A stretch of 64,000 nt of DNA. It comes from a virus. Of this stretch, positions 2,681 through 48,653 are shown piece after piece; position 1 is the first letter of the stretch, and the number at the start of each line of letters is the position of its first letter. The DNA is taken from UHGV virus genome UHGV-1378817, one strand, 5' to 3'. Under the pieces are notes generated by a model, which saw only the letters and a list, made by a program, of their open reading frames with translations, searched no databases and was not told the DNA's origin. The position numbers were made by a program, and so were the translations under genes.

Positions 2681-2681
2681 A

Positions 2682-32789: not shown

Positions 32790-33323
32790 ATGACTTGTGC
32801 TAGAAAACCTGATGAACAACGTAACGCCTACGACGAGTATGTGACACCGGAGTGGTGTGCAGAAGGGCTGTATGACCTTATTCCGTTCCCAGAAGACTGG
32901 ACCTACTTAGAGCCTTGCAGGAATAGTGCCTCAGGTGTGTTTTACTCCCGTATGCCGTTAGGATCTGCATGGGGAGAAATCCAAGAAGGTGTTGACTATC
33001 TGAATACAGAATACAACCATGTTGACTGTATTATCACCAACCCACCATACAGCCTAGCTCGTGAGTTTGTAGACAAGGCGTTGAAAGATGCTGACGTAGT
33101 TATTATGCTTTTGCGTCTTAATTTTCTGGAAAGCAAAGCCAGATTTGAATGGTGGCTTGATAATGCACCCACTACTGTGATCACAATATCTAAGCGTCCA
33201 TCATTTCAATCAAATGGTAGAACTGACGGGCAAGCATATGCGTATTTTGTGTGGGATAAGAAAAACCGTTTAGGCTTGCCGCCATTTATGTGGTTGGCAC
33301 CACCAGAGGTGGACCTGAAATGA
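32790..33323 (+). CDS. DNA N6-adenine methyltransferase (small)
   Basis: Catalytic motif ITNPPYS; 177 aa. Confidence 0.55.
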   Translation: MTCARKPDEQRNAYDEYVTPEWCAEGLYDLIPFPEDWTYLEPCRNSASGVFYSRMPLGSAWGEIQEGVDYLNTEYNHVDCIITNPPYSLAREFVDKALKDADVVIMLLRLNFLESKARFEWWLDNAPTTVITISKRPSFQSNGRTDGQAYAYFVWDKKNRLGLPPFMWLAPPEVDLK

Positions 33324-33604
33324 AAATGAGTGCTAAGGACAAATTACACCAGTTAGCGCTAAAACGTCCTGTAACGCTCCCTGACGAGCTTAACTCCATT
33401 TATGATGCGATTGTAGGGGAGATACAAAATAAAGCGTTAGCAGGCTTTCTGGGATGCGGATTTTCGATAAATCTACCCTCGCATCTCTCAGACTACTTCC
33501 CGCACATTGTTGGAGATTTAAGGGCAGGAGGTCTGCAGGTAGATGTTGTTGGCATCTCCCCAGAGAAAAATAATACGGTTGCCTACTTGACAGTAACCTG
33601 GTAG
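33320..33604 (+). CDS. hypothetical protein
   Basis: ORF 33290-33604 trimmed to Met MKMSAKD, coupled to the methyltransferase stop. Confidence 0.35.
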   Translation: MKMSAKDKLHQLALKRPVTLPDELNSIYDAIVGEIQNKALAGFLGCGFSINLPSHLSDYFPHIVGDLRAGGLQVDVVGISPEKNNTVAYLTVTW

Positions 33605-33880
33605 TTGTGTATTGTTGTTTTCAACAAGAGGGGGTCATTTATGTACAAGTCATTTTCAATCTACTCAAGACAGGCGAAACACTACACAGAGATCCTGATC
33701 ACTCAGAAAAAATCTGTGGAAGGTGAGTGGGAATATCACCATAAAATGTTGCGTCCAGACTGGGTTTTTGATAGACTTATTGCTATGATCCCTCTCGGAG
33801 AAGTATACCCTCTGACAGCCCATCGCGATGCTTGGGATTTAATTGATTACATAGATTCATTTAAGGAGCCTAGATTATGA
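33605..33880 (+). CDS. hypothetical protein
   Basis: 91-aa ORF. Confidence 0.35.
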   Translation: MCIVVFNKRGSFMYKSFSIYSRQAKHYTEILITQKKSVEGEWEYHHKMLRPDWVFDRLIAMIPLGEVYPLTAHRDAWDLIDYIDSFKEPRL

Positions 33881-34275
33881 AGATTGAGATTACTAAAGAA
33901 GGTAATAAAGTGTCCGGCAACTATGCAACAGTAATTCGGGATTTAATGTTTGAAGCCACCAAGATCGGTACATCTAAAGTTGGTCAAACTGTTAGTGTGA
34001 AAAGTAATATCGCCACAGGAGAGAAGGTATTCATTGTGGTCAAAGGGCAGGATCCCGTGGAAGGAACAGTGGGCCGAGGTGGCTACCTGTGCATTTCTGA
34101 AGAGCCGCGTATGTTAGTGGCTGACGCTACTATGGGTGGGAAACGTGTGTGCGAGGCGGATGAGGTAATGATTATCCAACCTGTTGATCCAGATGACCCA
34201 GCAACTTGGGTGGTAGGAAATGAAATCTTCTCTTTAGAAGAGTTATCCTTCCCAGCACCGCGCTCTGTTCAGTAA
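33877..34275 (+). CDS. hypothetical protein
   Basis: 132-aa ORF, MKIEIT N-terminus. Confidence 0.4.
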   Translation: MKIEITKEGNKVSGNYATVIRDLMFEATKIGTSKVGQTVSVKSNIATGEKVFIVVKGQDPVEGTVGRGGYLCISEEPRMLVADATMGGKRVCEADEVMIIQPVDPDDPATWVVGNEIFSLEELSFPAPRSVQ

Positions 34276-34312
34276 TAATTTATCTTACCAGGGACGGTAG
34301 GTAGGAGGTAGC

Positions 34313-34546
34313 ATGAAAGTTAAATTTCTTACAGATTTAGGGTACCCTTCCTTGGTTGACTGTGTTGGTAAAATTGTGGAAGCAAAACGGCTATCTGCAA
34401 ACGAGAATGTTGTCCTGGTTAAAGGGAAGGATTTACTAGCTGCAGGTGCAGAGTCTGGCAGGATCTCTCCTGATTATATGTATTACCTATCTTTAAGTAA
34501 TCTGCCAGAGCGAGGCGGTAAAGGCCTTGAAGTTGTGGAGGAGTGA
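34313..34546 (+). CDS. small acidic protein, paralog family member
   Basis: MKVKFLTD...KGKDLLAAGAESG...EVVEE; shares N-terminal MKVK-L-D and the (D/K)L(L/I)(A/T)AGA motif with ORFs 37968 and 38185. Confidence 0.45.
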   Translation: MKVKFLTDLGYPSLVDCVGKIVEAKRLSANENVVLVKGKDLLAAGAESGRISPDYMYYLSLSNLPERGGKGLEVVEE

Positions 34547-35076
34547 CAGGTATGCTTCTGATTAACTGGGAAGACCTCTATGGGGACAAAGACCCTGTTG
34601 CGTTTGTTGATCGTAGGTGGAGATACACTGAAGAACAACTGGCGGCAAAAAATTTAACTGCAAAACGCAGAAAGATCATCCAGTGCAAGTACAAATACGC
34701 ACAGTTTGCTGCAAAAGTGTCTCCACAAATCGAGAGCTTTGTGCTTAAATTGTATGACGAGTACCTCAAATTCCAATTGGATTTTGTGCAGGTGTACCGT
34801 GCACAGGTACGACCAGATACCAACATATGTAGATGGAAGGTTGTTTGTGAAGGTAAAGATTTGCCGCTCAGCTTGACAATTGAGTGGCGTTATGGGTATC
34901 ATGAGTGTGGTCTGTATGATATTTGGGATGTCATTGTAGATCCTGCTAAGCATCTGAACACAGAGGAGCTGGAATATATCAATAAGGTTATTCTCGATAT
35001 GTTTTTCAGCTACACACATGAAAACTCTGAGAAAGAACGGGATAATTTTCTTGACACCCTCAGCGACCATTTGTAG
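34543..35076 (+). CDS. hypothetical protein
   Basis: 177-aa ORF. Confidence 0.4.
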   Translation: MTGMLLINWEDLYGDKDPVAFVDRRWRYTEEQLAAKNLTAKRRKIIQCKYKYAQFAAKVSPQIESFVLKLYDEYLKFQLDFVQVYRAQVRPDTNICRWKVVCEGKDLPLSLTIEWRYGYHECGLYDIWDVIVDPAKHLNTEELEYINKVILDMFFSYTHENSEKERDNFLDTLSDHL

Positions 35077-35106
35077 TATACAATTTAACCTACAAAGGGA
35101 GGACCA

Positions 35107-35334
35107 ATGAGTATAAATGTTGTGCTAATAGGTTACCTGGTAATGTCCGTTATAACAGCGGTATTCTTGACAGGTGTATGCATCGTGTCCAGACGAAGGG
35201 TGAAGTTTGATGATTTTATCACCATCATCACTGCTGCACCTTTTTGGCCTGTTGTTATCTTCATCGTAATAATGTGCCTAGTTGATTACTACAAGAATAT
35301 CAGGAAGGAGAGTAGGGATGGAGGCCGCACCTAA
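35107..35334 (+). CDS. small membrane protein
   Basis: 75 aa with two hydrophobic segments. Confidence 0.4.
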   Translation: MSINVVLIGYLVMSVITAVFLTGVCIVSRRRVKFDDFITIITAAPFWPVVIFIVIMCLVDYYKNIRKESRDGGRT

Positions 35335-35535
35335 AACTATCTATACTGTTCTTAAAGAGATTGCGTTCTACGCAGATCTTAGCCAGGCACCTTTATGGGA
35401 AAAGAGCATGTATTTAAAATGGTGCGTTAATTTAGGGAGACCTTCCAGTGTTTCAAGCCATGTTTATTGAGATGCTATCTGGGATATTGTTACTGGTAGC
35501 CATCTTAGGTGGTGCAGTTCTGATGTATAACTATC

Positions 35536-35739
35536 TTGAAAAAGGAGACAGCAATGGTAAAAAATAAATCTTTAGAGCAGGCTGAAAACCTTCTCCACGA
35601 GCTGGTAAAGGAGTGGAAAGTTGAATACTCAGATTTTAATGCACGAGAGGGTGAAGATTATTGGCCTACGGAGCGCTCAGAGGGCGAATGGTATCAAGAT
35701 TTTATAGAGTGGTTATATCAGACGTGCGATGAGGGGTGA
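35536..35739 (+). CDS. hypothetical protein
   Basis: 67-aa ORF with RBS. Confidence 0.35.
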   Translation: MKKETAMVKNKSLEQAENLLHELVKEWKVEYSDFNAREGEDYWPTERSEGEWYQDFIEWLYQTCDEG

Positions 35740-36206
35740 CGATGTTTGTTAAATATGTAAAAACGTGCCTCAACAGTCTTGGCAGAGAGCATTGGTACAC
35801 CTTGCTTGAAAAAGGGGAAATTTTAACAAAATCTGGAAAGATAACTTTGATACCTCTTGATAGTAAAGGTAAAGACCCGTCACGACTTGTTATAGATGAT
35901 TACGTTACAGGTGTGACGTTCGAGGTCTCTGTGGAGAGGTTAATACGCAGAGCTGGCGGCCCTTATGACCGAAGAGAGTATGTTTTCGATTCCGTTACAG
36001 AGATGGGGGAGCATCCGTCTTTAATGTTCAGGATGGTAATCAGAGATATGAGGTCATCTATAGATAGGATCGTAAAGGACATTAAGGAACCTTTTAGAGT
36101 AAAAGTTAAGAAGTTTTTCGATTCTAAGATTAACATACTCGCCGTTGCACTAGGTGTAGTTCAACTTCTGTTAATTTTGCACTATTTTGAACTACTATTT
36201 AAGTAG
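35736..36206 (+). CDS. hypothetical protein with C-terminal TM segment
   Basis: 156 aa; C-terminal ILAVALGVVQLLLILHYF. Confidence 0.4.
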   Translation: MTMFVKYVKTCLNSLGREHWYTLLEKGEILTKSGKITLIPLDSKGKDPSRLVIDDYVTGVTFEVSVERLIRRAGGPYDRREYVFDSVTEMGEHPSLMFRMVIRDMRSSIDRIVKDIKEPFRVKVKKFFDSKINILAVALGVVQLLLILHYFELLFK

Positions 36207-36268
36207 TAGTTGAGATATGGCACAAAGGATGTGCCATAGTGAAATAAACTAAGAAAGAGGTAGAGAGA

Positions 36269-36616
36269 ATGCCAAAGATTAAAACGTTATTACTGTGGGT
36301 AGCTGTTTTAGCTTTTATAGGGTACTGGACTTGGGAAACTGAATTAAAAGATATCGGATATACCAGTCTTGAGAGCAAGGCGTGCATTGGCATAACCGAT
36401 GCGTTCAGGCAAAATGCTATGGATCACGAATGTGTTGATGCAGATATAGATGAGAAACTGTCTAAGGACAAAGATTTTTACCATGGGCATGCTTTACTTG
36501 ATAGTGGTGACACTGTAGAGTTCTGGTCGTGGTTTCGTGAAGATGGAACAATAAAAACAGCAGTAAAGATCTCTAACAAAGAGTTAATGCTGTTGCAGCA
36601 AAAGGAGGCTCAATGA
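36269..36616 (+). CDS. hypothetical protein with N-terminal signal/TM
   Basis: MPKIKTLLLWVAVLAFIGYWTW hydrophobic N-terminus. Confidence 0.4.
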   Translation: MPKIKTLLLWVAVLAFIGYWTWETELKDIGYTSLESKACIGITDAFRQNAMDHECVDADIDEKLSKDKDFYHGHALLDSGDTVEFWSWFREDGTIKTAVKISNKELMLLQQKEAQ

Positions 36617-36900
36617 TCTGGATATCCTATGCTGATGGCACCATGCTGTATACTGCAGGTACCAGATATGAAGTTCAGGAGAACGATAAAAAATTTATCG
36701 TAAAAACATTTGACAAGGACGACAACCTTTTGCTAGAATTGACTTACAAGGTTGGAGAGGTATCCAATATCCAATTGGATTGTGGTCATAAAGATAATCC
36801 ACTCAAAAAACCTGGAATAGGCAAGGCTTCAGAAGAACGTTTGTCTCGTATTGCAGAAAGCGTTTCTACACAAAAATCTAAGAAGGGGACTAGAAAATGA
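36613..36900 (+). CDS. hypothetical protein
   Basis: 95-aa ORF coupled to neighbours. Confidence 0.35.
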   Translation: MIWISYADGTMLYTAGTRYEVQENDKKFIVKTFDKDDNLLLELTYKVGEVSNIQLDCGHKDNPLKKPGIGKASEERLSRIAESVSTQKSKKGTRK

Positions 36901-37390
36901 AAAACTTACGTTTTAACACTTATTACTACAACACATTAAATGATTTGTACTATATTGTTCGAAGTAAAAGTCCTGAAACAGTCCTATTCTGCCGTGAACC
37001 CTTCAAAGGGGAGGAAGTAGAGTCTGAGATGAATGTTAGCCAAATCACCTCTTTGTTGCTCTCAGGCGCAATGGAAGAAGTAATATTCTAAACCAGGCGG
37101 GAGGGTTTTATGAAGCACTATTGCCTGTCTGGTAGAATGGGTGCAGATTGTGATTGGGTTTTCTTAAAACTTGTCAGCATTCGAGAGTTCATCCCAGAGG
37201 AAGAGCAAGAAAGTGAGCTGATGTCATGGATCAACCATTACGGTAACACTTTTCGACATGTTAAGGTAGAAGAGTTGCCAAGCGAGGCTGATTGACTATG
37301 ATTGCATCAATATTAACGTTTATGGGTGGCGTGGCATTCGGATTCATTGTTTGCCTGTTTATAGTGATTATGTCTATGCGAGGCTGAATT

Positions 37391-37687
37391 ATGAAACTTT
37401 TTGAGTGGTTTAAAAAGTTTAAATATAAAGCTGTAGCCATCGTGCCGTGGTCAATTCAGTGGGTTGATGAAGGTGGTCTACCAATACCTGGTGACAAAGA
37501 TACTGGGTACTGGATTATGATGGAGAACGGGTTTGGAAAGCGAAAGTATACGTGCACAAACTCTACTCGATCTGCACTTAATAGAGTGCCTGGTTACAAA
37601 CTTATGGTTGTGTGGAAAATGTCAGGCGTCCCTCCAGCCAATGCTCAATTTCTTACTGACAATCCTACCACGGTAGAGGGAGATTGA
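37391..37687 (+). CDS. hypothetical protein
   Basis: 98-aa ORF. Confidence 0.35.
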   Translation: MKLFEWFKKFKYKAVAIVPWSIQWVDEGGLPIPGDKDTGYWIMMENGFGKRKYTCTNSTRSALNRVPGYKLMVVWKMSGVPPANAQFLTDNPTTVEGD

Positions 37688-37971
37688 TAATGAAAAAGAT
37701 TAACAGTAGTGAAGTCGAGTTTAAACTTGTCGGAAAAGGCACTTACTGGGAAGTTCGTCAAAAGGTATATTTGTTCGGTCTTATTCCTTACTGGTCTAAA
37801 TTCTACTGGGGAGCTAACGAGTGGGGAAGATACGCCACCAAATCAATGGCACTTATTGGTATAGCAGAGTACATTGCAGCCAGAGATAGGGTTGGAGACA
37901 CTTATTACTATACTGCGGACGATATTCGTAACAGTGTTTACGTCCCACAACCACCTGATGGAGACCGTTGA
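37684..37971 (+). CDS. hypothetical protein
   Basis: 95-aa ORF. Confidence 0.35.
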   Translation: MIMKKINSSEVEFKLVGKGTYWEVRQKVYLFGLIPYWSKFYWGANEWGRYATKSMALIGIAEYIAARDRVGDTYYYTADDIRNSVYVPQPPDGDR

Positions 37972-38195
37972 TGAAAGTTAAAGTTTTAGATTCAAGCTTC
38001 TATATTGGTCAGGAGCCCTTAGTGGGGAAAGTGTTTACTGCTGTCCCTAACGAAGATTACCCCGACCTTTTAAAAATAAAAGGGGCAGATCTTATTGCCG
38101 CTGGTGCATCTCAGGAATGCTTTGACAGTCAGTGGACCTACAACTTTGCCCTAGGTGAGGATGTAGAGATAGTGGAGGACAATCATGAAGGTTAA
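37968..38195 (+). CDS. small acidic protein, paralog family member
   Basis: MMKVKVLDSSFYIGQEPLVGKVFTAVP...KGADLIAAGASQE...EDVEIVED. Confidence 0.45.
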   Translation: MMKVKVLDSSFYIGQEPLVGKVFTAVPNEDYPDLLKIKGADLIAAGASQECFDSQWTYNFALGEDVEIVEDNHEG

Positions 38196-38439
38196 AATTC
38201 TTGATTCTAACGTCTACTTGGGACAATCCTTCCTGAAGGGAAAAGTCGTTCCTGCGGTATACTTTGAAGGGTTGCCGTGGGATGATCCTGTTCGGCAACA
38301 TCACAGTTATGTAGGCCACAACGTAGTGTTTATCTTAGGAGCAGACCTGATCACCGCTGGTGCACCTGAATATTATTTCGGGGAAGAGTCCTATTATGCC
38401 TTTGGGGTAGGGTCAGATGCAGATATTGTAGAGCTGTGA
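38185..38439 (+). CDS. small acidic protein, paralog family member
   Basis: MKVKILDSNVYLGQSFLKGKVVPAV...GADLITAGAPEY...DADIVEL; adjacent to paralog 37968. Confidence 0.45.
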   Translation: MKVKILDSNVYLGQSFLKGKVVPAVYFEGLPWDDPVRQHHSYVGHNVVFILGADLITAGAPEYYFGEESYYAFGVGSDADIVEL

Positions 38440-38451
38440 TGGGTAACCGTT

Positions 38452-38850
38452 GTGAAAAATAAACTGTTCAAAGTTACAATGAAAATTCGCGGAGCTTGGA
38501 GCGTAAAGCAAGGGCGTATTCCAGAATTTGAGAAAGACTTCTACGTAGTCTCCACCTCGGAGGAGGCTGCATGCTGGCAAGCTGGCTATGCCTATGCAAG
38601 AACCTGGTACGAAGGATACCAGACTGGGGGCTATGACGGAGAAATTATCAGCAAGAGTGTAGAAGAAATTAATGTGTTGACAAGTGAAAAAGTTTTTGTT
38701 ATAGTGCATCCAGATTCCAGAGTGAAGCATTACTGGAATGCCAGAACAAAAACTTGGACACCGTTTGCAGATTCTGCTACGCCACTTTTAAACCAGAAAG
38801 CTCTTGACTCTGCCCCAAGTTATGGGGTTGTTGAAGAAAAGCTAAACTGA
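38452..38850 (+). CDS. hypothetical protein (paralog of ORF 40661)
   Basis: Shares HP-S...YW......WTP pattern with ORF 40661-41056. Confidence 0.4.
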   Translation: MKNKLFKVTMKIRGAWSVKQGRIPEFEKDFYVVSTSEEAACWQAGYAYARTWYEGYQTGGYDGEIISKSVEEINVLTSEKVFVIVHPDSRVKHYWNARTKTWTPFADSATPLLNQKALDSAPSYGVVEEKLN

Positions 38851-38867
38851 AACAGTGAGGTGCCACT

Positions 38868-39158
38868 ATGATGGATTTAGTTCTGAATATTGATAACGCA
38901 GGAGAGCTTAAAGACGATGGTGTAACAAGTATGGACAAACCCTGCTCTGCCGAGGTTGACTCAAAATGGACCTACAAGTTTGACGGAGAGATCTTCGCAA
39001 ATGATGAGAAGGTTGTAGATGCTGCAGCCATTTTGAACGCTTTAGGGTACGACCCTGTGAATTCTTTGATCAAGGATCCTGTTGAGTTTGCAGAGTATGT
39101 TCGAAAAATGGCAGATCTTGCTGTAGATATTTTAAGAACTATCGACAACAAGCTATAA
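38868..39158 (+). CDS. hypothetical acidic protein
   Basis: 96-aa ORF. Confidence 0.35.
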   Translation: MMDLVLNIDNAGELKDDGVTSMDKPCSAEVDSKWTYKFDGEIFANDEKVVDAAAILNALGYDPVNSLIKDPVEFAEYVRKMADLAVDILRTIDNKL

Positions 39159-39163
39159 AACTG

Positions 39164-39192
39164 TTGACACAACGCTTCGGCTATAGTATTAT
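39164..39192 (+). promoter_or_regulatory. sigma70-like promoter upstream of the HPF-like gene
   Basis: TTGACA-17 nt-TATTAT. Confidence 0.5.
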
Positions 39193-39241
39193 TGTTTTCA
39201 AAGAGAGATAGTTATTCCCTCTTCCTTAAAAGGAACACGTT

Positions 39242-39562
39242 ATGCAAATTGAAATCACTGGCAACAATGTAGAAATCACAGAAGGTATGGTATCTTTTAT
39301 TTCCCGCAAAATGTCCAAGCTGGAGCGTTTACATCCCTCTGTTAACTATGCACGTGTGAGTGTAAAAGTTGAAAATGATCACCAGGAAGTTATGGCGTTC
39401 ATTTTTGACAATTCTGGAAAAGAAGTTATTGCCAAGGCTAAAGGCAGTGATGCTTACGAGGCAACTGACCGTATGGTAGATGTTGCAGCACGTCAGCTGG
39501 CTAAATGCGGTGGAAAGAAAGGTAAGGGGAAAGGCAAAGTAAAGATTGACTTTGGAGAATGA
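39242..39562 (+). CDS. ribosome hibernation-promoting factor homolog (HPF/YfiA/RaiA family)
   Basis: MQIEITGNNVEITEGMVSFISRKMSKLERL... closely parallels E. coli HPF MQLNITGNNVEITEALREFVTAKFAKLEQY...; similar length, basic C-terminus. Confidence 0.7.
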   Translation: MQIEITGNNVEITEGMVSFISRKMSKLERLHPSVNYARVSVKVENDHQEVMAFIFDNSGKEVIAKAKGSDAYEATDRMVDVAARQLAKCGGKKGKGKGKVKIDFGE

Positions 39563-39699
39563 GGTGCTACAATGGGTGTGATTAAGAAATTAGTCCCAAA
39601 TGTAGAGATTGCATGCTTTGAAATTATGTTTGCAATCGCAGTTGTAGTTAATGTGTTAGGTTACGGCTATTAATATCAAATAATTGAGGAGACCTCTAA

Positions 39700-39969
39700 A
39701 TGAAAATTAAATTATTCAAAACTGAGCTGGCAGACAAAAACTGTGGACTGGTTGAAGGCATGATTGTTGAAGCACAACCAGTGGACTATATGAAGGTGGT
39801 TCGTGATGCCCTGGGTGAAGGTTTTGATCTGATGGAGCCAGCTCTGCGAGAAGATGTTATCGAGATGGCTAAAAAGCACACACCTGAAGGTTTGGTGGTG
39901 TTTGTTGCACCGGGTAACGGAGAAGAGTTGATTGTAACTCCTGATGTGTATGAGATTGTAGAGGAATAA
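39700..39969 (+). CDS. small acidic protein (possible distant family member)
   Basis: MKIKLFKTE...YEIVEE. Confidence 0.4.
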   Translation: MKIKLFKTELADKNCGLVEGMIVEAQPVDYMKVVRDALGEGFDLMEPALREDVIEMAKKHTPEGLVVFVAPGNGEELIVTPDVYEIVEE

Positions 39970-40060
39970 TCCTACTTGGATTAGCATACTTCCTCGATAA
40001 GGAAGATCTGTAATTATTTGTGGGAAAGGAATCCCAATCTCTTACCAGAGGTGATACTAT

Positions 40061-40324
40061 ATGATTGTTTATTTTAAAACTTCAGGTGGATACCCTGATT
40101 CTCAAAGTTTGATCGGAAAAACGTGCACAGCATACTCACCTCTTGATGAGGAGGTAAGCGATATTCTACGAAATATGTATCGGATTGACCCACAAGAAGC
40201 CTTTGATCAAAACCTTGTATTTGTCAAGGGCTCAGACATGAAGTCTTTGGGAGCATTCCCTGAAGCAGATGATGATGCCGTTTATTCGTTCATGACCCCT
40301 TTTGAAGCTATGGTTGTTGGGTGA
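40061..40324 (+). CDS. small acidic protein, paralog family member
   Basis: YPDSQSLIGKTCTAYSP and VFVKGSDMKSLGAFPE parallel motifs in ORFs 37968 and 38185. Confidence 0.4.
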   Translation: MIVYFKTSGGYPDSQSLIGKTCTAYSPLDEEVSDILRNMYRIDPQEAFDQNLVFVKGSDMKSLGAFPEADDDAVYSFMTPFEAMVVG

Positions 40325-40328
40325 TAAT

Positions 40329-40661
40329 ATGAAAGTACGCTTTATTGGTGAAACAATTCCTGTGCATCTCCGGTCTCCTGAGGATTCTGCAGATCTTGCA
40401 TCTCAAAAGGCGAGAGGTTATGATAAGAAAGTAACCTCAACCGATGTAGTGCTTGAGGCTACCAGTCTACCTGACCCTGCTGCATTCTTTAATCATTATG
40501 GGTACTATTTCAGCAATCTGATGAATATCGGTGAGCTTGTGTTTATCAGTGGTGGAGAGATTGTTAGCAAGCTTGGCGGCGATCCGGATGTCTTTCATGA
40601 AACCTGTCCTTTTGCATTTGTGGTAGGTTCAGATGTGGAAGTTATTGAGGAGGTGCGGTAA
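40329..40661 (+). CDS. small acidic protein (possible family member)
   Basis: ORF 40302-40661 trimmed to Met MKVRFIGE; ends VVGSDVEVIEEVR. Confidence 0.4.
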   Translation: MKVRFIGETIPVHLRSPEDSADLASQKARGYDKKVTSTDVVLEATSLPDPAAFFNHYGYYFSNLMNIGELVFISGGEIVSKLGGDPDVFHETCPFAFVVGSDVEVIEEVR

Positions 40662-41056
40662 TGGTAAGCCTATACCGTGTTGAGTATAGCTCAGATACTG
40701 TATACAACGTAAGAAGCAAAGATCGCAGCGACAGAGTGCAAGAAATGTATGTTCTTGCCGACAGTCCGTTATCTGCAGCGTTCAAGGCAGGGGCTCTTGC
40801 ATCTCGTTGGAAATTCGAAGGTGGATCTTTCTATGAAGAAACCCTTGAAGATTCTGTTGTTATTTCTTCTGTAGAGGTTTCAGATGACTACGAAGGGAAA
40901 AAGTTCGTAATGCGGCACCCACACAGCAACATTGCGTACTACTGGGATGTTCTGAACAACGAGTGGACCCCAGATCTTCAGAAGGCTACTGTGCTAACAC
41001 CGTTTTTGGCAGATAAGTTCCCACCAGAAGGTAATTTATCCGCACTGTTTCAGTAA
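40661..41056 (+). CDS. hypothetical protein (paralog of ORF 38452)
   Basis: Shares HPHSNIAYYWDVLNNEWTP pattern with ORF 38452. Confidence 0.4.
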   Translation: MVSLYRVEYSSDTVYNVRSKDRSDRVQEMYVLADSPLSAAFKAGALASRWKFEGGSFYEETLEDSVVISSVEVSDDYEGKKFVMRHPHSNIAYYWDVLNNEWTPDLQKATVLTPFLADKFPPEGNLSALFQ

Positions 41057-41074
41057 TTTTCTTGCACACAGGTG

Positions 41075-41103
41075 TTGACAACGCCAACCCTGTGTGAAAT
41101 AAT
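41075..41103 (+). promoter_or_regulatory. sigma70-like promoter
   Basis: TTGACA-17 nt-AATAAT upstream of ORF 41133. Confidence 0.4.
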
Positions 41104-41132
41104 ACCTTCATCTTAACAAGACAGGAGACCGA

Positions 41133-41393
41133 TTGATGAAGATTAAATTGAAAAACCTTGAAACGGCAGAGATTCAGGACGGTGTTGATTTCCGTTCTAA
41201 AGATGGTGACATCTTAGAGGTAAATATTCCAACCTACGAGCTGATTAAAGGTTTTGGCAACGTCCCAGAGGAAGGTATCGCAGACGTTCTTCTAATGTTA
41301 ATCGTTAGTGGGACAGTGTTCTTGGGTGAAGGTGAGAACGCTATTGCAATCCCAAGCCATTTTTATGAAGTAGTTGACGAAGAGGTGCTGTAA
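41133..41393 (+). CDS. small acidic protein
   Basis: MMKIKLKNLE...YEVVDEEVL. Confidence 0.4.
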   Translation: MMKIKLKNLETAEIQDGVDFRSKDGDILEVNIPTYELIKGFGNVPEEGIADVLLMLIVSGTVFLGEGENAIAIPSHFYEVVDEEVL

Positions 41394-41744
41394 ATGAAAG
41401 TAGAAATTACCGGTTTTGATATTAATATGGTTCCGGAAGATATTTTAGCTAAATTGCCGGAAGGTTTTGGTAACGGTGTTGTGGTGGATGCTGTTCCTCC
41501 TACCAAAGACATTCTGCTGCAGTATGGTGTAGCAGAGGAAGATGTCGATAAAGTTCTTACAATGATGGCAATCGATCGTGTTGTCGTTGTTAAAGGTCTC
41601 GATAATTTTGAGAGTGATCCCCTGATTATTCGTGGAGATGACTACAAAATCATCGATAATGAAGGCCAAGAGTTCTATGAGCCTTGTGCAGAAGATATTC
41701 TTAACTTATTACTGGAAGCAGGTACCGAAGAGGAGGACGAATAA
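41394..41744 (+). CDS. small acidic protein
   Basis: MKVEITGFD...; coupled to neighbours. Confidence 0.4.
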   Translation: MKVEITGFDINMVPEDILAKLPEGFGNGVVVDAVPPTKDILLQYGVAEEDVDKVLTMMAIDRVVVVKGLDNFESDPLIIRGDDYKIIDNEGQEFYEPCAEDILNLLLEAGTEEEDE

Positions 41745-42073
41745 TGAAGATTGACCCGTTACTGAAGGCTCGTGCAGAAAAAGCGTACACCATTAAGCTG
41801 ACCAACCTGGTTCCTACTTGTCATCCAGATGTAGGTTGGCCTGAAGGTCTGGTAGAGGGGACTGTAACAGCTGCATACCTCCCTAACATCAAATACCTCA
41901 TGGAGATCTTAGAGATGGATGAGGAAACTGCAGAACAGTTCCAGTTGGACATGAAACAAAGTGGGACTCTGGTTATTCACGGGTGGTACAATACTAAAGA
42001 TGCAGAAGACCCTCTTGTAACTTCTAATCTGGCATATGAAATCTTAGGACCTTTGAACCTGGGGGAAGACTAA
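41744..42073 (+). CDS. small acidic protein
   Basis: 109-aa ORF. Confidence 0.4.
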   Translation: MKIDPLLKARAEKAYTIKLTNLVPTCHPDVGWPEGLVEGTVTAAYLPNIKYLMEILEMDEETAEQFQLDMKQSGTLVIHGWYNTKDAEDPLVTSNLAYEILGPLNLGED

Positions 42074-42360
42074 TGAAAGATCTGGTTAAGATTAAGATTA
42101 AAGATACCAACGGCGAACTCAGCCATTTTGGAATTAATGATGGTGACGAGCTGATCGCACACCTACCTACCAAGGAAGTTGTAAGCAAAGCAGTTGCCGG
42201 AGAAGAAGATGCAATGCAGGCTGCAGGTGTGGATGAAAACTATGTAGCCATGTGTATGTGCCGAGATCAGGTTGTTCTGTATAAAGCGTATCGACCAAAC
42301 GGAGCCACGGAGTGGCTTGTATTCCGACCTGAAGGATATGAAATCCTAGAGGCACTATGA
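42073..42360 (+). CDS. small acidic protein
   Basis: MKDLVKIKIKD...YEILEAL. Confidence 0.4.
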   Translation: MKDLVKIKIKDTNGELSHFGINDGDELIAHLPTKEVVSKAVAGEEDAMQAAGVDENYVAMCMCRDQVVLYKAYRPNGATEWLVFRPEGYEILEAL

Positions 42361-42449
42361 TAAATCTTGCCAAGGTTGCAATGGTCCTGCTAATTATTTG
42401 CTGGTCAGTAACCTTAACACTGTGTCTTGTATTTCAGTAAGGTGCTTAT

Positions 42450-42713
42450 ATGAACATCCTGATGTGGGTTGTAGCAGTGGCGTTTGTTGCATGTTTTTGC
42501 TGCTGGGTTGCGGTGAGGATTTCTGTAGCTACCCTTCGGAAGTTGGGGTTCTCAGAGTGGGATATTAATATTCTTTCTTTTCGCAATGAAACAATCTCAG
42601 CCGCCCTGCTCTGTAAGAAATTCAAGTGGGAACCTTGTGAGGTCATGAGCTATCTAAGAACAGGTGATATCCCTGAAAGATTTAAAAAAGTTCTTGACGG
42701 CGATGATAAATGA
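42450..42713 (+). CDS. small membrane protein
   Basis: MNILMWVVAVAFVACFCCWVAV hydrophobic N-terminus. Confidence 0.35.
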   Translation: MNILMWVVAVAFVACFCCWVAVRISVATLRKLGFSEWDINILSFRNETISAALLCKKFKWEPCEVMSYLRTGDIPERFKKVLDGDDK

Positions 42714-42868
42714 CAGTATAGTGACTAACAAGAGGTGGTGAGTGATTGATTTTACTGAAGCTTTAATGATGGCCTTGTCTGTTTTAGCGCTATCGGTGTG
42801 TTTTGGGGCGTTATTCACATCTCTGGTTAAAGTTTTACATACAGTATTATTACCCAAGGAGCGCAGTA

Positions 42869-43120
42869 ATGACGAAGATTGACTTGAATGCTGGCGACCA
42901 TGTTGTTGTCAAATGCATTGGAGATTATCTTGGATTCACAATCGGCAATACTTACGAAGCGGTAGTGGCGAAGGTTTATCATGATAAAGTCCTCAGTCTT
43001 GTATTTGACTGCGATGATGATGGGGATGACCGATACGTCTGTGAGGTGCTGGCACGAGACGATAGTGAAGACCAGAAATTCCTGGTTATTGAACTGAACG
43101 GTATTTTTGTAGAACGTTAA
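42869..43120 (+). CDS. hypothetical protein
   Basis: ORF 42803-43120 trimmed to Met MTKIDLNAG with AAGGAG RBS. Confidence 0.4.
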   Translation: MTKIDLNAGDHVVVKCIGDYLGFTIGNTYEAVVAKVYHDKVLSLVFDCDDDGDDRYVCEVLARDDSEDQKFLVIELNGIFVER

Positions 43121-43148
43121 TTTAAAACAACATAAGGAGACTCTTACT

Positions 43149-43454
43149 ATGGCTAAATCTAAAGTTGAACTGTTCACCTCTCTTCCTTCTGACACTGCAG
43201 AACGTGATCGCCTTCGCAAAACAATCGAAGAGCTGGTGGAACTCCAGCTTCAGATTAAAGATCTGAAAGATGCCATCAAGGATATCATTCTCGTTGAGAA
43301 GCAGGATCATCTGTATTCTCCTAAATTCATCAAATCTCTGGTGGCTACAGAGTTCGATATTCGCTATGAGGCTGAAAAACGTCGCGCTAAAATCGAAGAA
43401 GAGGTTGAGCACATGTCTGAGGCAGACATTCTGTTCAAACGCTCTGTAGAATAA
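43149..43454 (+). CDS. hypothetical coiled-coil protein
   Basis: 101-aa charged ORF with AAGGAG RBS. Confidence 0.4.
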   Translation: MAKSKVELFTSLPSDTAERDRLRKTIEELVELQLQIKDLKDAIKDIILVEKQDHLYSPKFIKSLVATEFDIRYEAEKRRAKIEEEVEHMSEADILFKRSVE

Positions 43455-43458
43455 TGAC

Positions 43459-43490
43459 AAAGAGAGGGGCCTGGGCCCCTCTTTCACTAT
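43459..43490 (+). terminator. rho-independent terminator
   Basis: AGAGGGGCC-tgg-GCCCCTCT followed by a T-rich stretch, immediately after the stop of ORF 43149-43454. Confidence 0.55.
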
Positions 43491-43835
43491 TTGCAAAAGG
43501 AACCAGCTATGAGAATGCCAATCACTGTGAAAGAGCTAAATGAACGTGATGCAGGTGGTCTATGGCCTGCACGAAAAATCCGCTGCGTCTATATGAAAGA
43601 GAATCTTGAACATCTTGATCAACAGATCAAGGTCGGTGATATTTTTGAGGTCTTCTATTCCAATCGTCGTAACTGGGAAACCATTCAGCCTTCTGGTTTT
43701 GTTCTTGCCAAACTTGACACTGGAGAAGTGATTATCCCTGGGTTGGATATTGTCTTCGAAATTATCCAGGAGTGGGATCCGGATAAGATTAGATACGAAG
43801 AATTATTCGGTAAAGGTATTATCAAACCTGTGTGA
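43491..43835 (+). CDS. hypothetical protein
   Basis: 114-aa ORF. Confidence 0.4.
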   Translation: MQKEPAMRMPITVKELNERDAGGLWPARKIRCVYMKENLEHLDQQIKVGDIFEVFYSNRRNWETIQPSGFVLAKLDTGEVIIPGLDIVFEIIQEWDPDKIRYEELFGKGIIKPV

Positions 43836-44143
43836 GGTGGATTATGTCTACAAAGGCGGCTAAATACTCCTACATGCCATCAACCTCTGCAGAGGTAGAC
43901 TTTAGTTTCGATGTGTTTCCACTGTTTGAGGCGGTTCTGGCATACCCAACAATACTATCTACTCCTGAATCACTTGTGCCTGTTAAGTTGCAGAACGCTA
44001 TGCATTCTATGCACTACAACAATAAATGTAGGCACAGATGGTGTCAGGACGAGGAAAAAGATTTGGACAGTTTGAGAGATTTTGACAGTCACCTTTTGAC
44101 ACCTTTCAGCTACTCCAACCTTGATAAGCCCTCATGGGTATAG
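43832..44143 (+). CDS. hypothetical protein
   Basis: 103-aa ORF. Confidence 0.35.
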   Translation: MRWIMSTKAAKYSYMPSTSAEVDFSFDVFPLFEAVLAYPTILSTPESLVPVKLQNAMHSMHYNNKCRHRWCQDEEKDLDSLRDFDSHLLTPFSYSNLDKPSWV

Positions 44144-44298
44144 CAAAATATCAAATTTAAGACACCTAGGACGCTCTGTGGCGTCCTTTTCTTTATCTGG
44201 TGCACGATTGCATACCTTGGACAGGTAATCTCATTATAGAGCGCTTTAGAAAGAATTTGACTGTTTTCCTAAACCACCAACATCTTGAGGTATCATTT

Positions 44299-44520
44299 AT
44301 GAAAATTGTTCTATACGACGATAACGATATTGCTCTCAGTACTGTATATTTTGAAGATGATGATCTGCCAGATTTTCTACGTGTCTCCACATTTGCTGCA
44401 GAATACGGTGTGAGCCGTCAGGCAATGCATAAGTACCGAGAGTATCAGAATTGCTCATGGGCTGAGACCTTTATGCACTTTATCCAACGTAAGCAGGCTC
44501 TGGACCGCAAAAAGCTTTAA
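44299..44520 (+). CDS. small putative DNA-binding protein
   Basis: ORF 44200-44520 trimmed to Met MKIVLYDDND; FAAEYGVSRQAMHKY looks HTH-like. Confidence 0.35.
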   Translation: MKIVLYDDNDIALSTVYFEDDDLPDFLRVSTFAAEYGVSRQAMHKYREYQNCSWAETFMHFIQRKQALDRKKL

Positions 44521-44620
44521 GTGTATATACTTTTTATTTCGAGCGTAGCGAGAACGCACGTCCGTTTTGACCCAAATCACCATACGCTCGGATTTTAACC
44601 AAACCCTCGCGGCGTTTCTG

Positions 44621-44649
44621 TTGACACATTACCGCTCTCGTGATAGTAT
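44621..44649 (+). promoter_or_regulatory. sigma70-like promoter
   Basis: TTGACA-17 nt-TAGTAT; GGAGAA RBS and ATG at about 44682 downstream. Confidence 0.45.
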
Positions 44650-44681
44650 CCACACATCGTTTGGAGAATATGGGATACACA

Positions 44682-44771
44682 ATGAGAACATTGTCCGAAG
44701 TTTTAGTGGTGATCCTGATGATCATTACGTCCATAGCGGCTGTTGCCGGAATACTCACGGGTGGAACATGA
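44682..44771 (+). CDS. candidate small hydrophobic peptide (~29 aa)
   Basis: MRTLSEVLVVILMIITSIAAVAGILTGGT, single TM-like helix, own promoter and RBS; overlaps two featureless longer ORFs (44567-44980 plus, 44534-44953 minus) so the coding frame here is unresolved. Confidence 0.3.
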   Translation: MRTLSEVLVVILMIITSIAAVAGILTGGT

Positions 44772-45101
44772 TCAACACGCATGCATCTGAAGAGACATCT
44801 GAAGGAGTGACCATATGTCCATTGGCTGATCCAGTGAAAGGGGAAAACTTCGATTCTGAAGATTCTCCATCTTCGCTCCAGATAGATCCTGAGGCTGATG
44901 ACTTGACGTGGGGAGACATCGTAGATATCTGGTTCTCTATTATGCCTGAGCACGAAGAGTTCAGAGGTGGTAGACTATGAAGCACCGAGCCCACACAGGT
45001 TCCTCATGCTAAAGCATGGCCTGAAGAGGCAAACGTGCATAATTCCCGTGCATTGGAACGTATAAAACCCTGTTCACACTCTCATTTCCAGAGGAGATTT
45101 C

Positions 45102-45317
45102 ATGAAGATAGAAATATTTGGTGGGGCTGACAACACTCGTGGCCTGATTTACCTTGAATTTGATGAATCATACCTGCCAGAGGTGTTAAATATAGACTCT
45201 GTTGCTGAGGCTTTGGGAGTAAACCCTAAAGAACTCCACTCTTGTGCTGAGATCGATGGTTGGGAAGAGACCATGAACATTGATTTCAGTGAAGTAGAGG
45301 ACGAACCGCTGGACTGA
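45102..45317 (+). CDS. small acidic protein
   Basis: MKIEIFGG... 71 aa with GGAG RBS; last gene of the plus-strand block. Confidence 0.4.
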   Translation: MKIEIFGGADNTRGLIYLEFDESYLPEVLNIDSVAEALGVNPKELHSCAEIDGWEETMNIDFSEVEDEPLD

Positions 45318-45446
45318 CACACAATTAGCTGCCCGGCTAAAGTGCTGGAAGCGCACCTATAACACATCTTTCAACTAAATTTCCTACCACCACAATCACT
45401 TACCTCCAACACATGACTGTTTGCTTGTTTAGTGAGCAGTCATGCC

Positions 45447-45474
45447 TTGACATTCTTGCCTATCCTGATAAAAT
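45447..45474 (+). promoter_or_regulatory. sigma70-like promoter reading into a GC-rich non-coding segment
   Basis: TTGACA-16 nt-TAAAAT with no ORF downstream; followed by about 270 nt of unusually GC-rich sequence ending in a G-run and T-rich stretch near 45730-45760. Confidence 0.4.
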
Positions 45475-47725
45475 TAAGTTCTTCTCTTTTCTTTTACCGA
45501 GTAATTCGGGTTTTCTGTTCTCTTCGGTTTGAAGGGGTATGGAGATACACCTGAGTGAACAGGGTGAACAACCGAACCATTGGCTATGGCATTAGCATGG
45601 CGAAGCGGACGGGTGACGAAAGAGGGGCCGGAGGACACCAGTCACTGCCATATGATATATGGGTGATAACCTGAAGAGTCTGAATAAGTGTTTAAGTACC
45701 AGTCAGAGGAAAAGGTGAATGGTAGCCGAAGGGGGAGGGGGGTTTCTTGTATCTTTAATTTGTATATTATGTATACACTTGTAAACCAATATCATCTAGA
45801 TCTGTTTACCACACAAAGTGGATAGAGACAAATATTACCTATTAAACTTGAATTATTTATAGAAAATACCACAACACCACTTAAGTCTTTGATTTTACAC
45901 ACAAATCTTACAGATATTCAACCTCCATATTTAACATACCTGTAACATATTCCATACTCTACCTGCCTGATCAATTTCCCCAACTACATCCCTCATATTT
46001 CCCCTGTCTGTACTACCCTGCCCCACCGGGAGTCCCGTCATATCTGGCTTTCCAGCAAATATCACACCCACAAATATCATGCCTGAAGAGGGTTTCATCC
46101 CATAATACCTGCCTTGCCTGAAGAGCGCTTCATACACCACGTAAATTTTTTAATTGACCTCCCCTGCCCCGCCGGAGAGGTTGGCTTTTCCCACACAGAC
46201 CTGAAGAGTCAGCCAGAAATATCTGAATAGGCCCAGTTCTACCACGATTTTGACCTGACCTACAGGAGCGCTGCCAGGCGGACGAAATGGGAATACTTCT
46301 CATTCTTATAACAATTCTCAAATATCGAGGCAGTGAGGCAAATTAATAGGCCAGGCCGTTCACACAGTGGCACAACATTTGCAACCTATCTTGTGGGGGT
46401 GAATGAGAATACCTATCATTGTGAGAACCATTATCATTACGGGCAATTTAACATAATACCCATTATGCGCACCACTGGTGATACATACAGGGATTGATAA
46501 CACGAGTTACAGTTTACGCATATAACAATCATATTTCTTACTATTTGTGTGGGATATAGTTAGCAGCCGATAGATTAGATATTGACCTGTGGACTTCCAA
46601 CCGTCTAGACGTCTAAGCGCCCACACAACAAGGCTTATACATACATTACTGAATGTAAACAGGGCCGCAAAAATGCTACCATACCAGTTTGTAAATTTTC
46701 ATGCAGCACTTGACAAAGAGGAGGAAAACTTGTCTGACACAATGTCACACAATATGACACAATAACGGCTGTTACCATTCCATATCTCACTGTTTACGCA
46801 TAGACTGTTTACGCCTGGATAGTTTACACCTTGACAGTTTACACAGATATGATAAGCCATGACATTCGTTTGCATGAAAACAATTAGCAAGTTAACAATT
46901 AACAAGTTAATAATATATGACATAATATAAAAGCAGGGCAACTATTAGAAGATCTATAGTTGCCTTGCTTGTTATGTCATGATTAACTAAATACAAGGCA
47001 ACTATGATCTGATTAATAGTTTGCAGACAAACTATCACGGGGGTGATGGTTACTGCTTTTATATTATGTCGCGACTCCGTCGCGCCATGCCATTCGTTTG
47101 CATAGTTGCCTTATTGTTACAGATAAAATAATTGTATTGTTAATTATTTCTTATCTTTCTATTAGTCATCTAATGATTCCGGTTAGTATAGTAACGTACA
47201 GTAAACATTAGACGACTAAATATTTCTATGTTTATGATAACCTATCGTGACAATTCCGGACTGTTTACGAAAAATGTTGACACCTGAGCTGATTTATGTT
47301 ATGCAATTTAAACGAATAATTATTTTATGCAGGTATTGACTATTCCGTTATTCTATGGTTGGAATAAATACTTAGCAAGCTATAGAATGGTGAGCGTACG
47401 TAAATTCTGAGATTTGTCGGCTATAGTTATACTCGATTTTTCACGTAGAACACGCTTTTTGGTTTGTGTAAGTGTATGACTTATAAAGATTTTTAGTTGT
47501 TGACAAGATATTGAAGATGTGCATCAGGTTAAATTTTGTGCAATAGCTGCATTACGTGCAATTTTGGAAGGAAAACTGGTAAAAATAGCACCGATACCAC
47601 ACAATGAAAGGTTATGCAATAGCTATTTTATATGTATATTTGTACAGTGTGCAGGATTGATGGCTCGTCAATTATTCCACTTGCCAGGTAGGGCCGTTTA
47701 TGGTAGGGGAAGAGCAGACAAAAAG

Positions 47726-47744
47726 AAAGGGGCCTAAGCCCCTT
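47726..47744 (-). terminator. rho-independent terminator (minus strand)
   Basis: On the minus strand AAGGGGC-ttag-GCCCCTT followed by TCTTTTT, immediately downstream of the stop of ORF 47763-48182. Confidence 0.5.
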
Positions 47745-47762
47745 GATAATTCAGTTAAAAAA

Positions 47763-48182
47763 TTATAATGATTCGTATATTTCAAAAATCCGATTTGCCA
47801 GGTCGTTACGGTAGCGGAATTTTTCCTCACGTTTGATCATCAGATCTTTAAAGCCGTATTCTTTAAGCACTTCATTAACTTTATGGCGGCATACCTTCAT
47901 ATTATCTTGAGCGTCACCAATAAACTTGTTGCTGTGGTGCATTGCTTTAATTTCTTCTTCCAGGACCAGGGCAACTACCCGTACCGGATCAAGCTGGTAG
48001 GCGGTAACATCGATGCGGCATTGTAGACGGCTTTTAACGTCTGCCACCGGATATACTGCAACCTCTTCCCCGTCAACATTGACAATAATTAGTTTACCAT
48101 CGATTTCGAATCCTTTCGCCGCCGGACCGTGACAAAAAGCGTTATCAAAGCTATATGCCGGATTATTAGATTTAATGTTCAT
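47763..48182 (-). CDS. hypothetical protein
   Basis: 139-aa ORF. Confidence 0.45.
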   Translation of the reverse strand: MNIKSNNPAYSFDNAFCHGPAAKGFEIDGKLIIVNVDGEEVAVYPVADVKSRLQCRIDVTAYQLDPVRVVALVLEEEIKAMHHSNKFIGDAQDNMKVCRHKVNEVLKEYGFKDLMIKREEKFRYRNDLANRIFEIYESL

Positions 48183-48326
48183 GGTGTTTTTACCTCTTAG
48201 TTAATTTTCTTACAACTTCCCTTCAAAAAAGAATATAGCAAAACTGCCGATCCCTGTCAACCAAGGATGGCATAATTTTTATGTGATCAAGGGGCTTTAT
48301 TGCCCCTGACCATGTAACTTGTTGTA

Positions 48327-48590: not shown

Positions 48591-48653
48591 GATGTTTACC
48601 TCTTTATGGGGTTCTGGTTTGGTGTGGGCCTTTTGGCCCGTGTCATTATCTTA

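Follow-up and report, generated by a model that had tools for sequence, protein, structure and literature searches.

The window analysed here is a 64,000-nucleotide stretch of the virus genome UHGV-1378817, which we assign to the rV5-like (Vequintavirus) phages of E. coli. Between positions 33877 and 45317 it carries a dense plus-strand array of about 36 small genes, ten of which encode proteins that fall into two paralogous families of five members each, here called A and B. Both families are predicted to fold as an SH3-like five-stranded barrel. Together with a further pair of related genes, C, family A forms the gene order A-A-C, which is found twice in the array, and the near-identical orthologues of one of these trios (40061, 40329 and 40661) are needed on one uropathogenic clinical strain, CFE311. 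On balance we favour the view that the array is a host-specific accessory or counter-defence locus whose small acidic barrel proteins bind host components. Genes are named here by the first position of their coding sequence.

The phage and its array of small genes

The array region matches rV5-like E. coli myophages of the genus Vequintavirus with 97-98% identity over 97% of its length, and its near-identical relatives include rV5_ev168, Murica and the BASEL phages Bas48 to Bas58. It is preceded on the 5' side by PhoH-like, ClpP-like and methyltransferase genes and is followed on the 3' side by a 2.4-kb non-coding stretch, where the GC skew changes sign. In the annotated relatives (Murica, Bas54, Bas57 and Bas58) nearly all the genes of the array are described as "hypothetical". 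The exceptions are 39242-39562, given as a ribosome hibernation factor, 43149, given as a "transcriptional regulator", and a "virion structural protein" whose label is doubtful. All the open reading frames (ORFs) named in an earlier note on this stretch do exist and lie on the plus strand; start codons were corrected for 37971 (not 37968), 40329 (not 40302) and 41136 (not 41133).

The ORFs of the array were compared all against all by BLASTP (37 ORFs) and by hhalign (34 ORF profiles, 561 pairs), the profiles being enriched with the divergent syntenic phage contig L006, whose orthologues are 29-87% identical, and with phage Aya. The 465 ORFs of at least 40 aa found in the window, each taken from its longest start, served as background for the hidden Markov model (HMM) and motif tests. 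The earlier note had conceded that its proposal would fall if such alignments were not significant; they returned significant groups A, B, C and D, so that this objection failed.

Family A

Family A is composed of genes 34313, 37971, 38185, 40061 and 40329. The first four had been proposed as relatives in the earlier note, and their relationship was recovered by BLASTP, by the family HMM and by full-length HMM matches to PHROG 5009; gene 40329 is now added as the fifth. The pair 37971/38185 shows 42% identity (BLASTP E 3e-15) and is linked to the others through 37971/34313 (E 1e-6), 38185/40329 (E 5e-4) and 34313/40061 (E 2e-3), with identities between members as low as about 21-30%. In the hhalign comparison the pairs of family A gave P values from 1e-17 to 3e-5. 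When each member was omitted in turn from the family HMM, the omitted protein was the best non-seed match among the 465 ORFs (E 1e-4 to 2e-15). The HMM built without 40329 retrieves this protein at E 2.7e-6, the next match being at E 0.46, and for this reason we regard it as a true member. It is missed by PHROG 5009, yet it matches the broad family A profile with hhalign P 7e-16; indeed the PHROGs place only three of the five members (34313, 37971 and 38185) strongly in 5009. The family HMM finds exactly five copies in the window.

Two other ORFs of the array begin with MKIEI and were considered as members of A or B. Both were rejected, 33877 having family-profile P values of 0.081 and 0.032 and 45102 of 0.13 and 0.0057.

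Family B

The earlier note had also listed seven more small acidic ORFs with similar starts and ends. Six of them do belong to one of the two families, 40329 as a member of family A and 39700, 41136 (then given as 41133), 41394, 41744 and 42073 as a separate family B; 45102 belongs to neither and pairs instead with 44299. Family B is held together by a network of hhalign matches with P from 5.6e-6 to 3e-3, mostly over 62-84 columns, among them those of 41394 with 41744 (P 5.6e-6) and with 41136 (P 1.2e-5). Each of the five is retrieved by the profile of the other four at the top of the 465 ORFs, with E from 1.5e-4 to 1.9e-7, and all non-members remain above E 0.7. Over the ten leave-one-out tests of both families the next matches have E of at least 0.17, a gap of at least three orders of magnitude. 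As with family A, exactly five copies are found in the window. The PHROGs leave family B ungrouped, with one member in each of 11868, 12359, 12155, 12457 and 12794.

Predicted fold and relationship of the two families

The proteins of both families are short and, with one exception, strongly acidic. Nine of the ten have a net charge of -6 to -21 and a pI of 4.05-4.7, thus carrying the strong negative charge that marks DNA-mimic inhibitors of the Ocr, Arn and Ugi type; the exception is 34313 (net charge -1, pI 5.4). The N-terminal motif MK[IV][KERD][ILVF] occurs in eight of the 465 longest-start ORFs and in a ninth, 40329, when it is read from its annotated ATG, and all nine lie inside the array. 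No significant match was found for A, B, C or D among Pfam, NCBIfam and PDB sequences, and in Pfam at E values up to 1 the A and B members matched nothing except three chance-level hits to unrelated families.

One member of each family was modelled. The AlphaFold2 model of 37971 (32-sequence alignment; pLDDT 92, pTM 0.79) has strands at residues 2-5, 21-23, 33-37, 56-61 and 65-69, and a short helix (38-43) lies over the conserved G-x-D-L-I-x-A-G-A motif. The AlphaFold model of 41136 (41 sequences; pLDDT 90.7, pTM 0.78) has strands at 2-5 and 26-28, helices at 34-40 and 45-58, and strands at 61-63, 70-72 and 77-80. Both retrieve SH3-like barrel folds almost exclusively, and they superpose on SH3, KOW or PsaE domains. 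The models thus predict for A and B the same SH3-like barrel of five strands, decorated in B by a two-helix insert between strands 2 and 3, and the idea that the two groups might have unrelated folds did not hold. The helical insert of B is located where the family A members 38185, 40061 and 40329 have insertions. The same five-stranded topology is common to the SH3 domain, the KOW domain of Spt5/NusG, PsaE and the C-terminal domain of retroviral integrase; none of the A or B members matches the KOW or NusG-Spt5 profile of Pfam.

As judged by their sequences, A and B are not significantly alike and cannot be called demonstrably one family. A single ten-member sequence family was considered and rejected, the A and B profiles aligning with P 0.019 and the 25 A x B pairs having a median P of 0.19; with a broader A profile the best local P was 4.7e-4, covering strands 1-2 only. 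The A x B P values are nevertheless lower than those obtained against other ORFs of the array (Mann-Whitney p 0.01 and 0.003, or 0.03 and 0.01 when only acidic controls are used). Since SH3-like barrels are very common, a shared fold is weak proof of common descent, and we consider that a single superfamily comprising A and B is likely but unproven.

Pair C and the A-A-C cassette

Genes 38452 and 40661, which the earlier note had paired by a shared motif, are clearly related (BLASTP E 2.6e-10, hhalign P 1.7e-10), and both match PHROG 7379 over their full length (E 4e-74 and 2e-66, respectively). Each is the third gene of an A-A-C module, 37971-38185-38452 in the first case and 40061-40329-40661 in the second. 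The first two genes overlap in module 1 and are 4 nt apart in module 2. By hhalign, 40329 is closer to 38185, which holds the corresponding place in module 1, than to any other family A gene. Such a pattern fits a segmental duplication of the whole cassette without proving it.

Evolution and distribution

The duplication and divergence proposed in the earlier note are supported by the two five-member families, the two pairs, the double A-A-C and a chimeric gene. In two independent metagenome contigs (L009 and L010, 3001-3213 in both) one gene for a 70-aa protein replaces 37971 and 38185, joining the N-terminus of the former to the C-terminus of the latter within their shared AGA motif. It is thus supported that the copies of A and B arose by repeated tandem and segmental duplication, including that of the A-A-C cassette. 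To the best of our reading these paralogue families appear not to have been described before, the PHROGs having grouped only three A members and the C pair.

Relative to phage Aya the dN/dS of all ten A and B genes is 0.04-0.13, from which we conclude that they are real genes under purifying selection. The dS of 34313, 37971 and 38185 is 0.8-1.4, compared with 0.07-0.4 for their neighbours, and suggests that recombination swapped in alleles from a more distant lineage. The gene content of the array is variable. Bas54 lacks six of its genes (window 35742 to 37687), and in the divergent phage L006 other genes stand in place of the first C copy; orthologous sets are conserved in the latter phage. 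In other genera of the Vequintavirinae no syntenic array was found: only a 224-bp piece of 43149 was detected, in Mydovirus and related phages and in a different context.

Family A is distributed more widely than B and C. A full HMMER search of 1.84 billion representatives gave some 30 additional relatives that cover the whole profile, 63-136 aa long (the longest 253 aa), with a clear common consensus; some of these have two domains or C-terminal extensions. They are present in unrelated phage contigs, sometimes in two copies, and they match PHROGs 5009, 13367 and 7345 and no Pfam family. Distant homologues were also sought for B and C, and both were confined to rV5-like contigs. In a Foldseek search of predicted viral structures, small proteins of similar shape came up in several viruses, among them Vequintavirus CM1, RB49, Merlin, Sf20 and CS01; nearly all of the proteins that carry a name are "uncharacterised".

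In mEp021-like E. coli prophages, the interval from the Q antiterminator gene to the holin gene encodes a 75-aa homologue of family A. Along its full length this prophage protein (P0031) shares 48% identity with 34313, and for mEp021_40 the figure is 41%; length and motifs are alike. The prophage gene is a single copy in a temperate phage, among other small ORFs of the Q-to-holin region, unlike the five copies of the rV5-like array. The other small ORFs of mEp021 were examined as possible homologues of array genes and none besides the family A gene was common to both.

Promoters and coupling

Matches of 10 or 11 of 12 positions to the sigma-70 consensus were found in intergenic gaps at 39164, 39546, 42694, 37275 and 35051. 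The four B genes from 41136 to 42360 form one block with gaps of 0, -1 and -1 nt. The statement of the earlier note that most of the genes are translationally coupled was too strong for the array as a whole, where 15 of the 35 junctions overlap or are within 5 nt; it is nearer the mark for the A, B and C genes, seven of the 12 starting at most 5 nt from the upstream stop. In the rV5 genome paper only host-type promoters are described, the array is placed within one long transcription unit and no paralogues are mentioned.

Published transposon data on phage Bas54

The HIDEN-SEQ preprint (doi 10.1101/2025.11.20.689424) reports transposon-insertion sequencing of Bas54, phage MaxBurger (MZ501093). 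We mapped the Bas54 genes to the window by BLASTP, and the A, B and C orthologues were found to be 89-100% identical. On K-12, genes bas54_0135 to 0168 were classed as "non-essential" or "intermediate"; the one exception is bas54_0138, whose TA sites were too few for it to be classed. Seven of the ten A and B orthologues were non-essential (saturation 0.81-1.0); bas54_0151 to 0153 were "intermediate" (doi 10.1101/2025.11.20.689424).

The strongest phenotype is seen on strain CFE311. Insertions in the three adjacent genes bas54_0152, 0151 and 0150, the orthologues of 40061, 40329 and 40661, fell from 71-142 mean reads to 0, with log2 fold changes (log2FC) of -7.16, -6.17 and -6.77, respectively, and an adjusted p shown as 0 (doi 10.1101/2025.11.20.689424). 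The other C gene, bas54_0157, was depleted 4-fold (log2FC -2.14, adjusted p shown as 0). Since the orthologues are near-identical, we take it that genes 40061, 40329 and 40661 of the present phage are likewise needed on this strain.

Another gene of the same array, bas54_0140, was depleted 45-fold on CFE311 (log2FC -5.48). The authors show that this gene and a MoxR ATPase are needed against the predicted defence system DS-28 of CFE311; genes bas54_0150 to 0152 are not discussed (doi 10.1101/2025.11.20.689424). Like the trio, bas54_0140 lies within the array, is dispensable on K-12 and is needed on CFE311. It differs in having a sequence unrelated to A, B and C and a known cognate defence system.

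Across the non-coding region from the array, the small genes bas54_0123 to 0134 (about 47763-49800 on the minus strand of the window, placed as a block) were nearly all depleted on CFE311 as well, mostly 4- to 36-fold (doi 10.1101/2025.11.20.689424), and constitute a second cluster of host-specific genes.

Interpretation and alternatives

The earlier note took this kind of duplication as typical of phage host-takeover or anti-defence families, a reading to which the Bas54 data lend indirect support. We suggest that the array belongs to a long rightward transcription unit, of which it forms the accessory part, and that host RNA polymerase probably reads it from several consensus sigma-70 promoters. 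Its accessory nature is supported by the variable gene content (Bas54, L006, the chimera contigs and an insertion private to this phage, described below) and by the family A homologue in prophages. The ten A and B genes would then supply one kind of protein, an acidic SH3-like barrel of 74-116 residues, bare in A and helix-decorated in B. These proteins probably have no catalytic motif and might act as stoichiometric, one-to-one binders of host proteins, each paralogue with its own target, so as to neutralise barriers that differ between strains, defence systems for example. Cooperation within the A-A-C trio is possible. We hold this reading of the array, as a host-specific accessory or counter-defence locus, to be somewhat better than evenly supported. 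A bolder form of it is that A-A-C is a three-part counter-defence module, that 40061-40329-40661 neutralises a barrier of CFE311, that the wider family A, present in virulent phages and in the moron region of lambdoid-type prophages, is a new and widespread class of small barrel immune antagonists and that B is a helix-decorated offshoot with other targets; this we put forward as a tentative proposal, and a rather doubtful one.

Several points weigh against a counter-defence role. Early expression is read from consensus promoter matches only, and purifying selection (dN/dS 0.04-0.13) is by itself no gene-wide signature of an arms race. Eight of the ten A and B orthologues were undepleted on CFE311, the one strain on record, and the preprint pairs DS-28 only with bas54_0063 and bas54_0140 and no defence system with any A, B or C gene (doi 10.1101/2025.11.20.689424). 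Sheet S6 of Extended Data Table 8, which bears the label K-12 vs CFE303, has the same numbers as sheet S7, and only the command line of S6 identifies the strain as CFE311, so that the CFE303 comparison must be missing from the stored file. Finally, 40061, 40329 and 40661 are adjacent and tightly coupled, and polarity onto 40661 could therefore explain the two family A signals.

This last point leads to a narrower explanation, possible although we doubt it, namely that only the C gene 40661 matters on CFE311, that the signals of 40061 and 40329 are a polar effect and that the SH3-like families have no demonstrated role. A 91-nt gap indeed precedes the three genes, whose spacings are only 4 and -1 nt, and the C paralogue 38452 is also depleted, in contrast to the family A genes immediately before it. 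The same observation can be turned round, however: insertions in 37971 and 38185, only 12-39 nt upstream of 38452, are undepleted and hence not polar, and the authors found little polarity overall, insertions upstream of essential genes being usually tolerated (doi 10.1101/2025.11.20.689424).

It is unlikely, in our opinion, that the A and B proteins are general host-takeover proteins which shut off or redirect transcription, translation or division in every host. Small, acidic and probably early genes would suit that role, as would the ribosome hibernation factor gene found among them and the "intermediate" class of bas54_0151 to 0153 on K-12, which makes these three not fully non-essential. 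A function exerted in every host is nevertheless hard to reconcile with seven of the ten orthologues being non-essential on K-12, with the strongest phenotype being strain-specific and with a gene content that varies among close relatives. Improbable too is that the barrels are KOW, Tudor or Sm type binders of nucleic acid, or of the ribosome or RNA polymerase, tuning phage gene expression. The predicted topology is the one they share with KOW domains, but no Pfam KOW or other domain match was obtained, the charge of nine of the ten proteins is ill-suited to nucleic-acid binding, and the genes are non-essential on K-12. That short, compositionally biased proteins with identities down to about 21-30% resemble each other only by chance is already refuted by the first rank of the omitted member in ten out of ten leave-one-out tests, by the independent PHROG assignments and by the orthologous sets kept in the divergent phage.

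Other genes in the array and its surroundings

The coordinates of the A, B and C genes and of the other features discussed here are given in Table 1.

Table 1. Paralogous genes, other genes and putative promoters of the array, with their orthologues in phage Bas54
Feature	Position	Strand	Bas54 orthologue (identity)	Details
Family A member 1	34313..34546	+		77 aa, pI 5.4; PHROG 5009 E 8e-36; leave-one-out HMM E 1.5e-8
Family A member 2	37971..38195	+		74 aa, net charge -9; first gene of A-A-C module 1; PHROG 5009 E 3e-38
Family A member 3	38185..38439	+		84 aa; 11-nt overlap with 37971; PHROG 5009 E 4e-32
Family A member 4	40061..40324	+	bas54_0152 (100%)	87 aa; first gene of A-A-C module 2; leave-one-out HMM E 1.6e-6; PHROG 5009 E 1.2e-4
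Family A member 5	40329..40661	+	bas54_0151 (99%)	110 aa; long insert between strands 2 and 3; hhalign vs 38185 P 7.7e-7
Family B member 1	39700..39969	+		89 aa, net charge -10; leave-one-out HMM E 1.5e-4; hhalign vs 42073 P 1.1e-4 over 84 columns
Family B member 2	41136..41393	+		85 aa, net charge -11
Family B member 3	41394..41744	+		116 aa, net charge -21, acidic tail; leave-one-out HMM E 1.9e-7
Family B member 4	41744..42073	+		109 aa, N-terminal extension; leave-one-out HMM E 5e-6
Family B member 5	42073..42360	+		95 aa; leave-one-out HMM E 9e-6
Family C member 1	38452..38850	+	bas54_0157 (99%)	132 aa from GTG, or 123 aa from ATG at 38479; third gene of module 1
Family C member 2	40661..41056	+	bas54_0150 (99%)	131 aa; start overlaps stop of 40329; third gene of module 2
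Pair D member 1	44299..44520	+		73 aa; inside insertion ~44251-44536
Pair D member 2	45102..45317	+		71 aa, net charge -16; PHROG 12108; last gene of the array
HPF/RaiA homologue	39242..39562	+		annotated in relatives; L006 orthologue with PF02482; outside families A and B
Orthologue of bas54_0140	43844..44143	+	bas54_0140 (98%)	mapped by BLASTP; outside the families
Sigma-70-like promoter, TTGACA-17-TATTAT	39164..39192	+		11/12 matches, in gap before HPF gene; consensus match only
Sigma-70-like promoter, TTGACA-17-AATAAT, extended -10 TG	41075..41103	+		11/12 matches, in 79-nt gap before the four-gene B operon; consensus match only

Genes 44299 and 45102 form pair D (BLASTP E 1e-5, hhalign P 1e-6). 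The first of them lies within an insertion of about 286 bp that blastn did not find in Murica, Bas54, Bas57, Bas58, Aya or L006, and a tblastn search of 50,697 phage records gave no match to 44299-44520. The protein belongs to a six-member cluster in which one source says "regulatory protein", and to our own reading the C-terminal half of its sequence (AEYGVSRQAMHKY) looks like a helix-turn-helix.

The orthologue of the ribosome hibernation promoting factor (HPF/RaiA) is non-essential in Bas54 (doi 10.1101/2025.11.20.689424). The HPF gene is followed by a 33-aa hydrophobic ORF, which is annotated in relatives. The product of 33877-34275 (132 aa) begins with MKIEITKEGNKV, resembling the N-terminus of the HPF protein, MQIEITGNNVEI. 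Compared with HPF as a diverged paralogue, it aligned over 64 columns with hhalign P 4.9e-4, a value that loses its significance once the 561 comparisons are corrected for, and we mention a very diverged HPF-like paralogue as a possible identity.

The orthologue of bas54_0140 is only 34% identical to its counterpart in the divergent phage L006. Outside the genus, DNA-level conservation of the array is limited to gene 43149-43454 (Proteus phage Mydo, Raoultella Ro1 and Klebsiella phages; about 69% identity). This gene matches PHROG 639, "transcriptional regulator", shows a weak match to GapR-like DNA-binding proteins (E 0.04) and is followed by a bidirectional hairpin terminator at 43463-43482.

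The non-coding stretch (45318-47762) comprises 2.4 kb free of credible ORFs, between the end of the plus-strand array and the end of the minus-strand genes. An iteron-like 15-mer (ACTGTTTACGCATAG) occurs in it five times, along with several inverted repeats, for instance GGCAACTAT / ATAGTTGCC and a perfect pair of 18 nt. The stretch matched no Rfam family or tRNA, and an Rfam search of 33000-49000 returned nothing. In Bas54 the corresponding intergenic region, given as about 2 kb (some 2.5 kb in the Bas54 record), yielded no transposon insertions (doi 10.1101/2025.11.20.689424), and in the rV5 genome paper the counterpart is drawn as a "non-coding" box. The stretch is a candidate for the replication origin or another essential cis element.

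Elsewhere in the window, ARAGORN identified a 99-nt tRNA-like gene with a four-base anticodon (atcc) at 2763-2861, within a cluster of seven tRNAs (2518-3330). We also noted 18 GenBank records (MG0656xx) labelled "Campylobacter phage" that are 96-98% identical to the array region of this E. coli phage; the host label of these records looks doubtful.

Significance and comparison with known systems

Phages of the rV5 type are often put forward for therapy and biocontrol; some two thirds of their genes lack a known function. In this work ten "hypothetical proteins" are reduced to one predicted fold and two families, one of which, family A, extends far beyond the genus and has no Pfam entry. The trio 40061, 40329 and 40661 offers a concrete lead, as it decides growth on one clinical strain: its target, if found, would be a new host barrier, a new counter-measure or both, and could help to predict or engineer host range. 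If the A and B genes turn out to be ordinary accessory genes that have no defined target, what remains is a useful annotation and not a discovery.

The nearest relatives of family A are the members of PHROGs 5009, 13367 and 7345, to which it belongs and whose consensus reads MKVKLLNDGGY ... G-x-E-L-I-x-A-G-A ... Y-x-F ... E-x-E-I-V-E-E. For no member of these groups did we find a function, a Pfam family or a solved structure. Copy number, which the earlier note had proposed to compare among related phages, sets the rV5-like phages apart, with five copies against one or two in the other phages examined.

Paralogue expansions in loci of viral host interaction are known from the internal proteins IPI-III of T4 and from the gene "accordions" of poxviruses. 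The present array is like them in the tandem duplication and divergence of small accessory genes and in the recombinational change of copy number, represented here by the chimera. It is unlike them in that its copies, at 21-50% identity, are old and not recent amplifications, and have been retained stably throughout the genus under purifying selection.

Small acidic phage inhibitors that bind host enzymes one-to-one include Ocr and Gp2 of T7, Ugi of PBS2, p56 of phi29, Arn of T4 and AcrIIA4. The A and B proteins resemble these in being small, strongly acidic and devoid of catalytic motifs, in being encoded among early or accessory genes and in being often dispensable in laboratory hosts.

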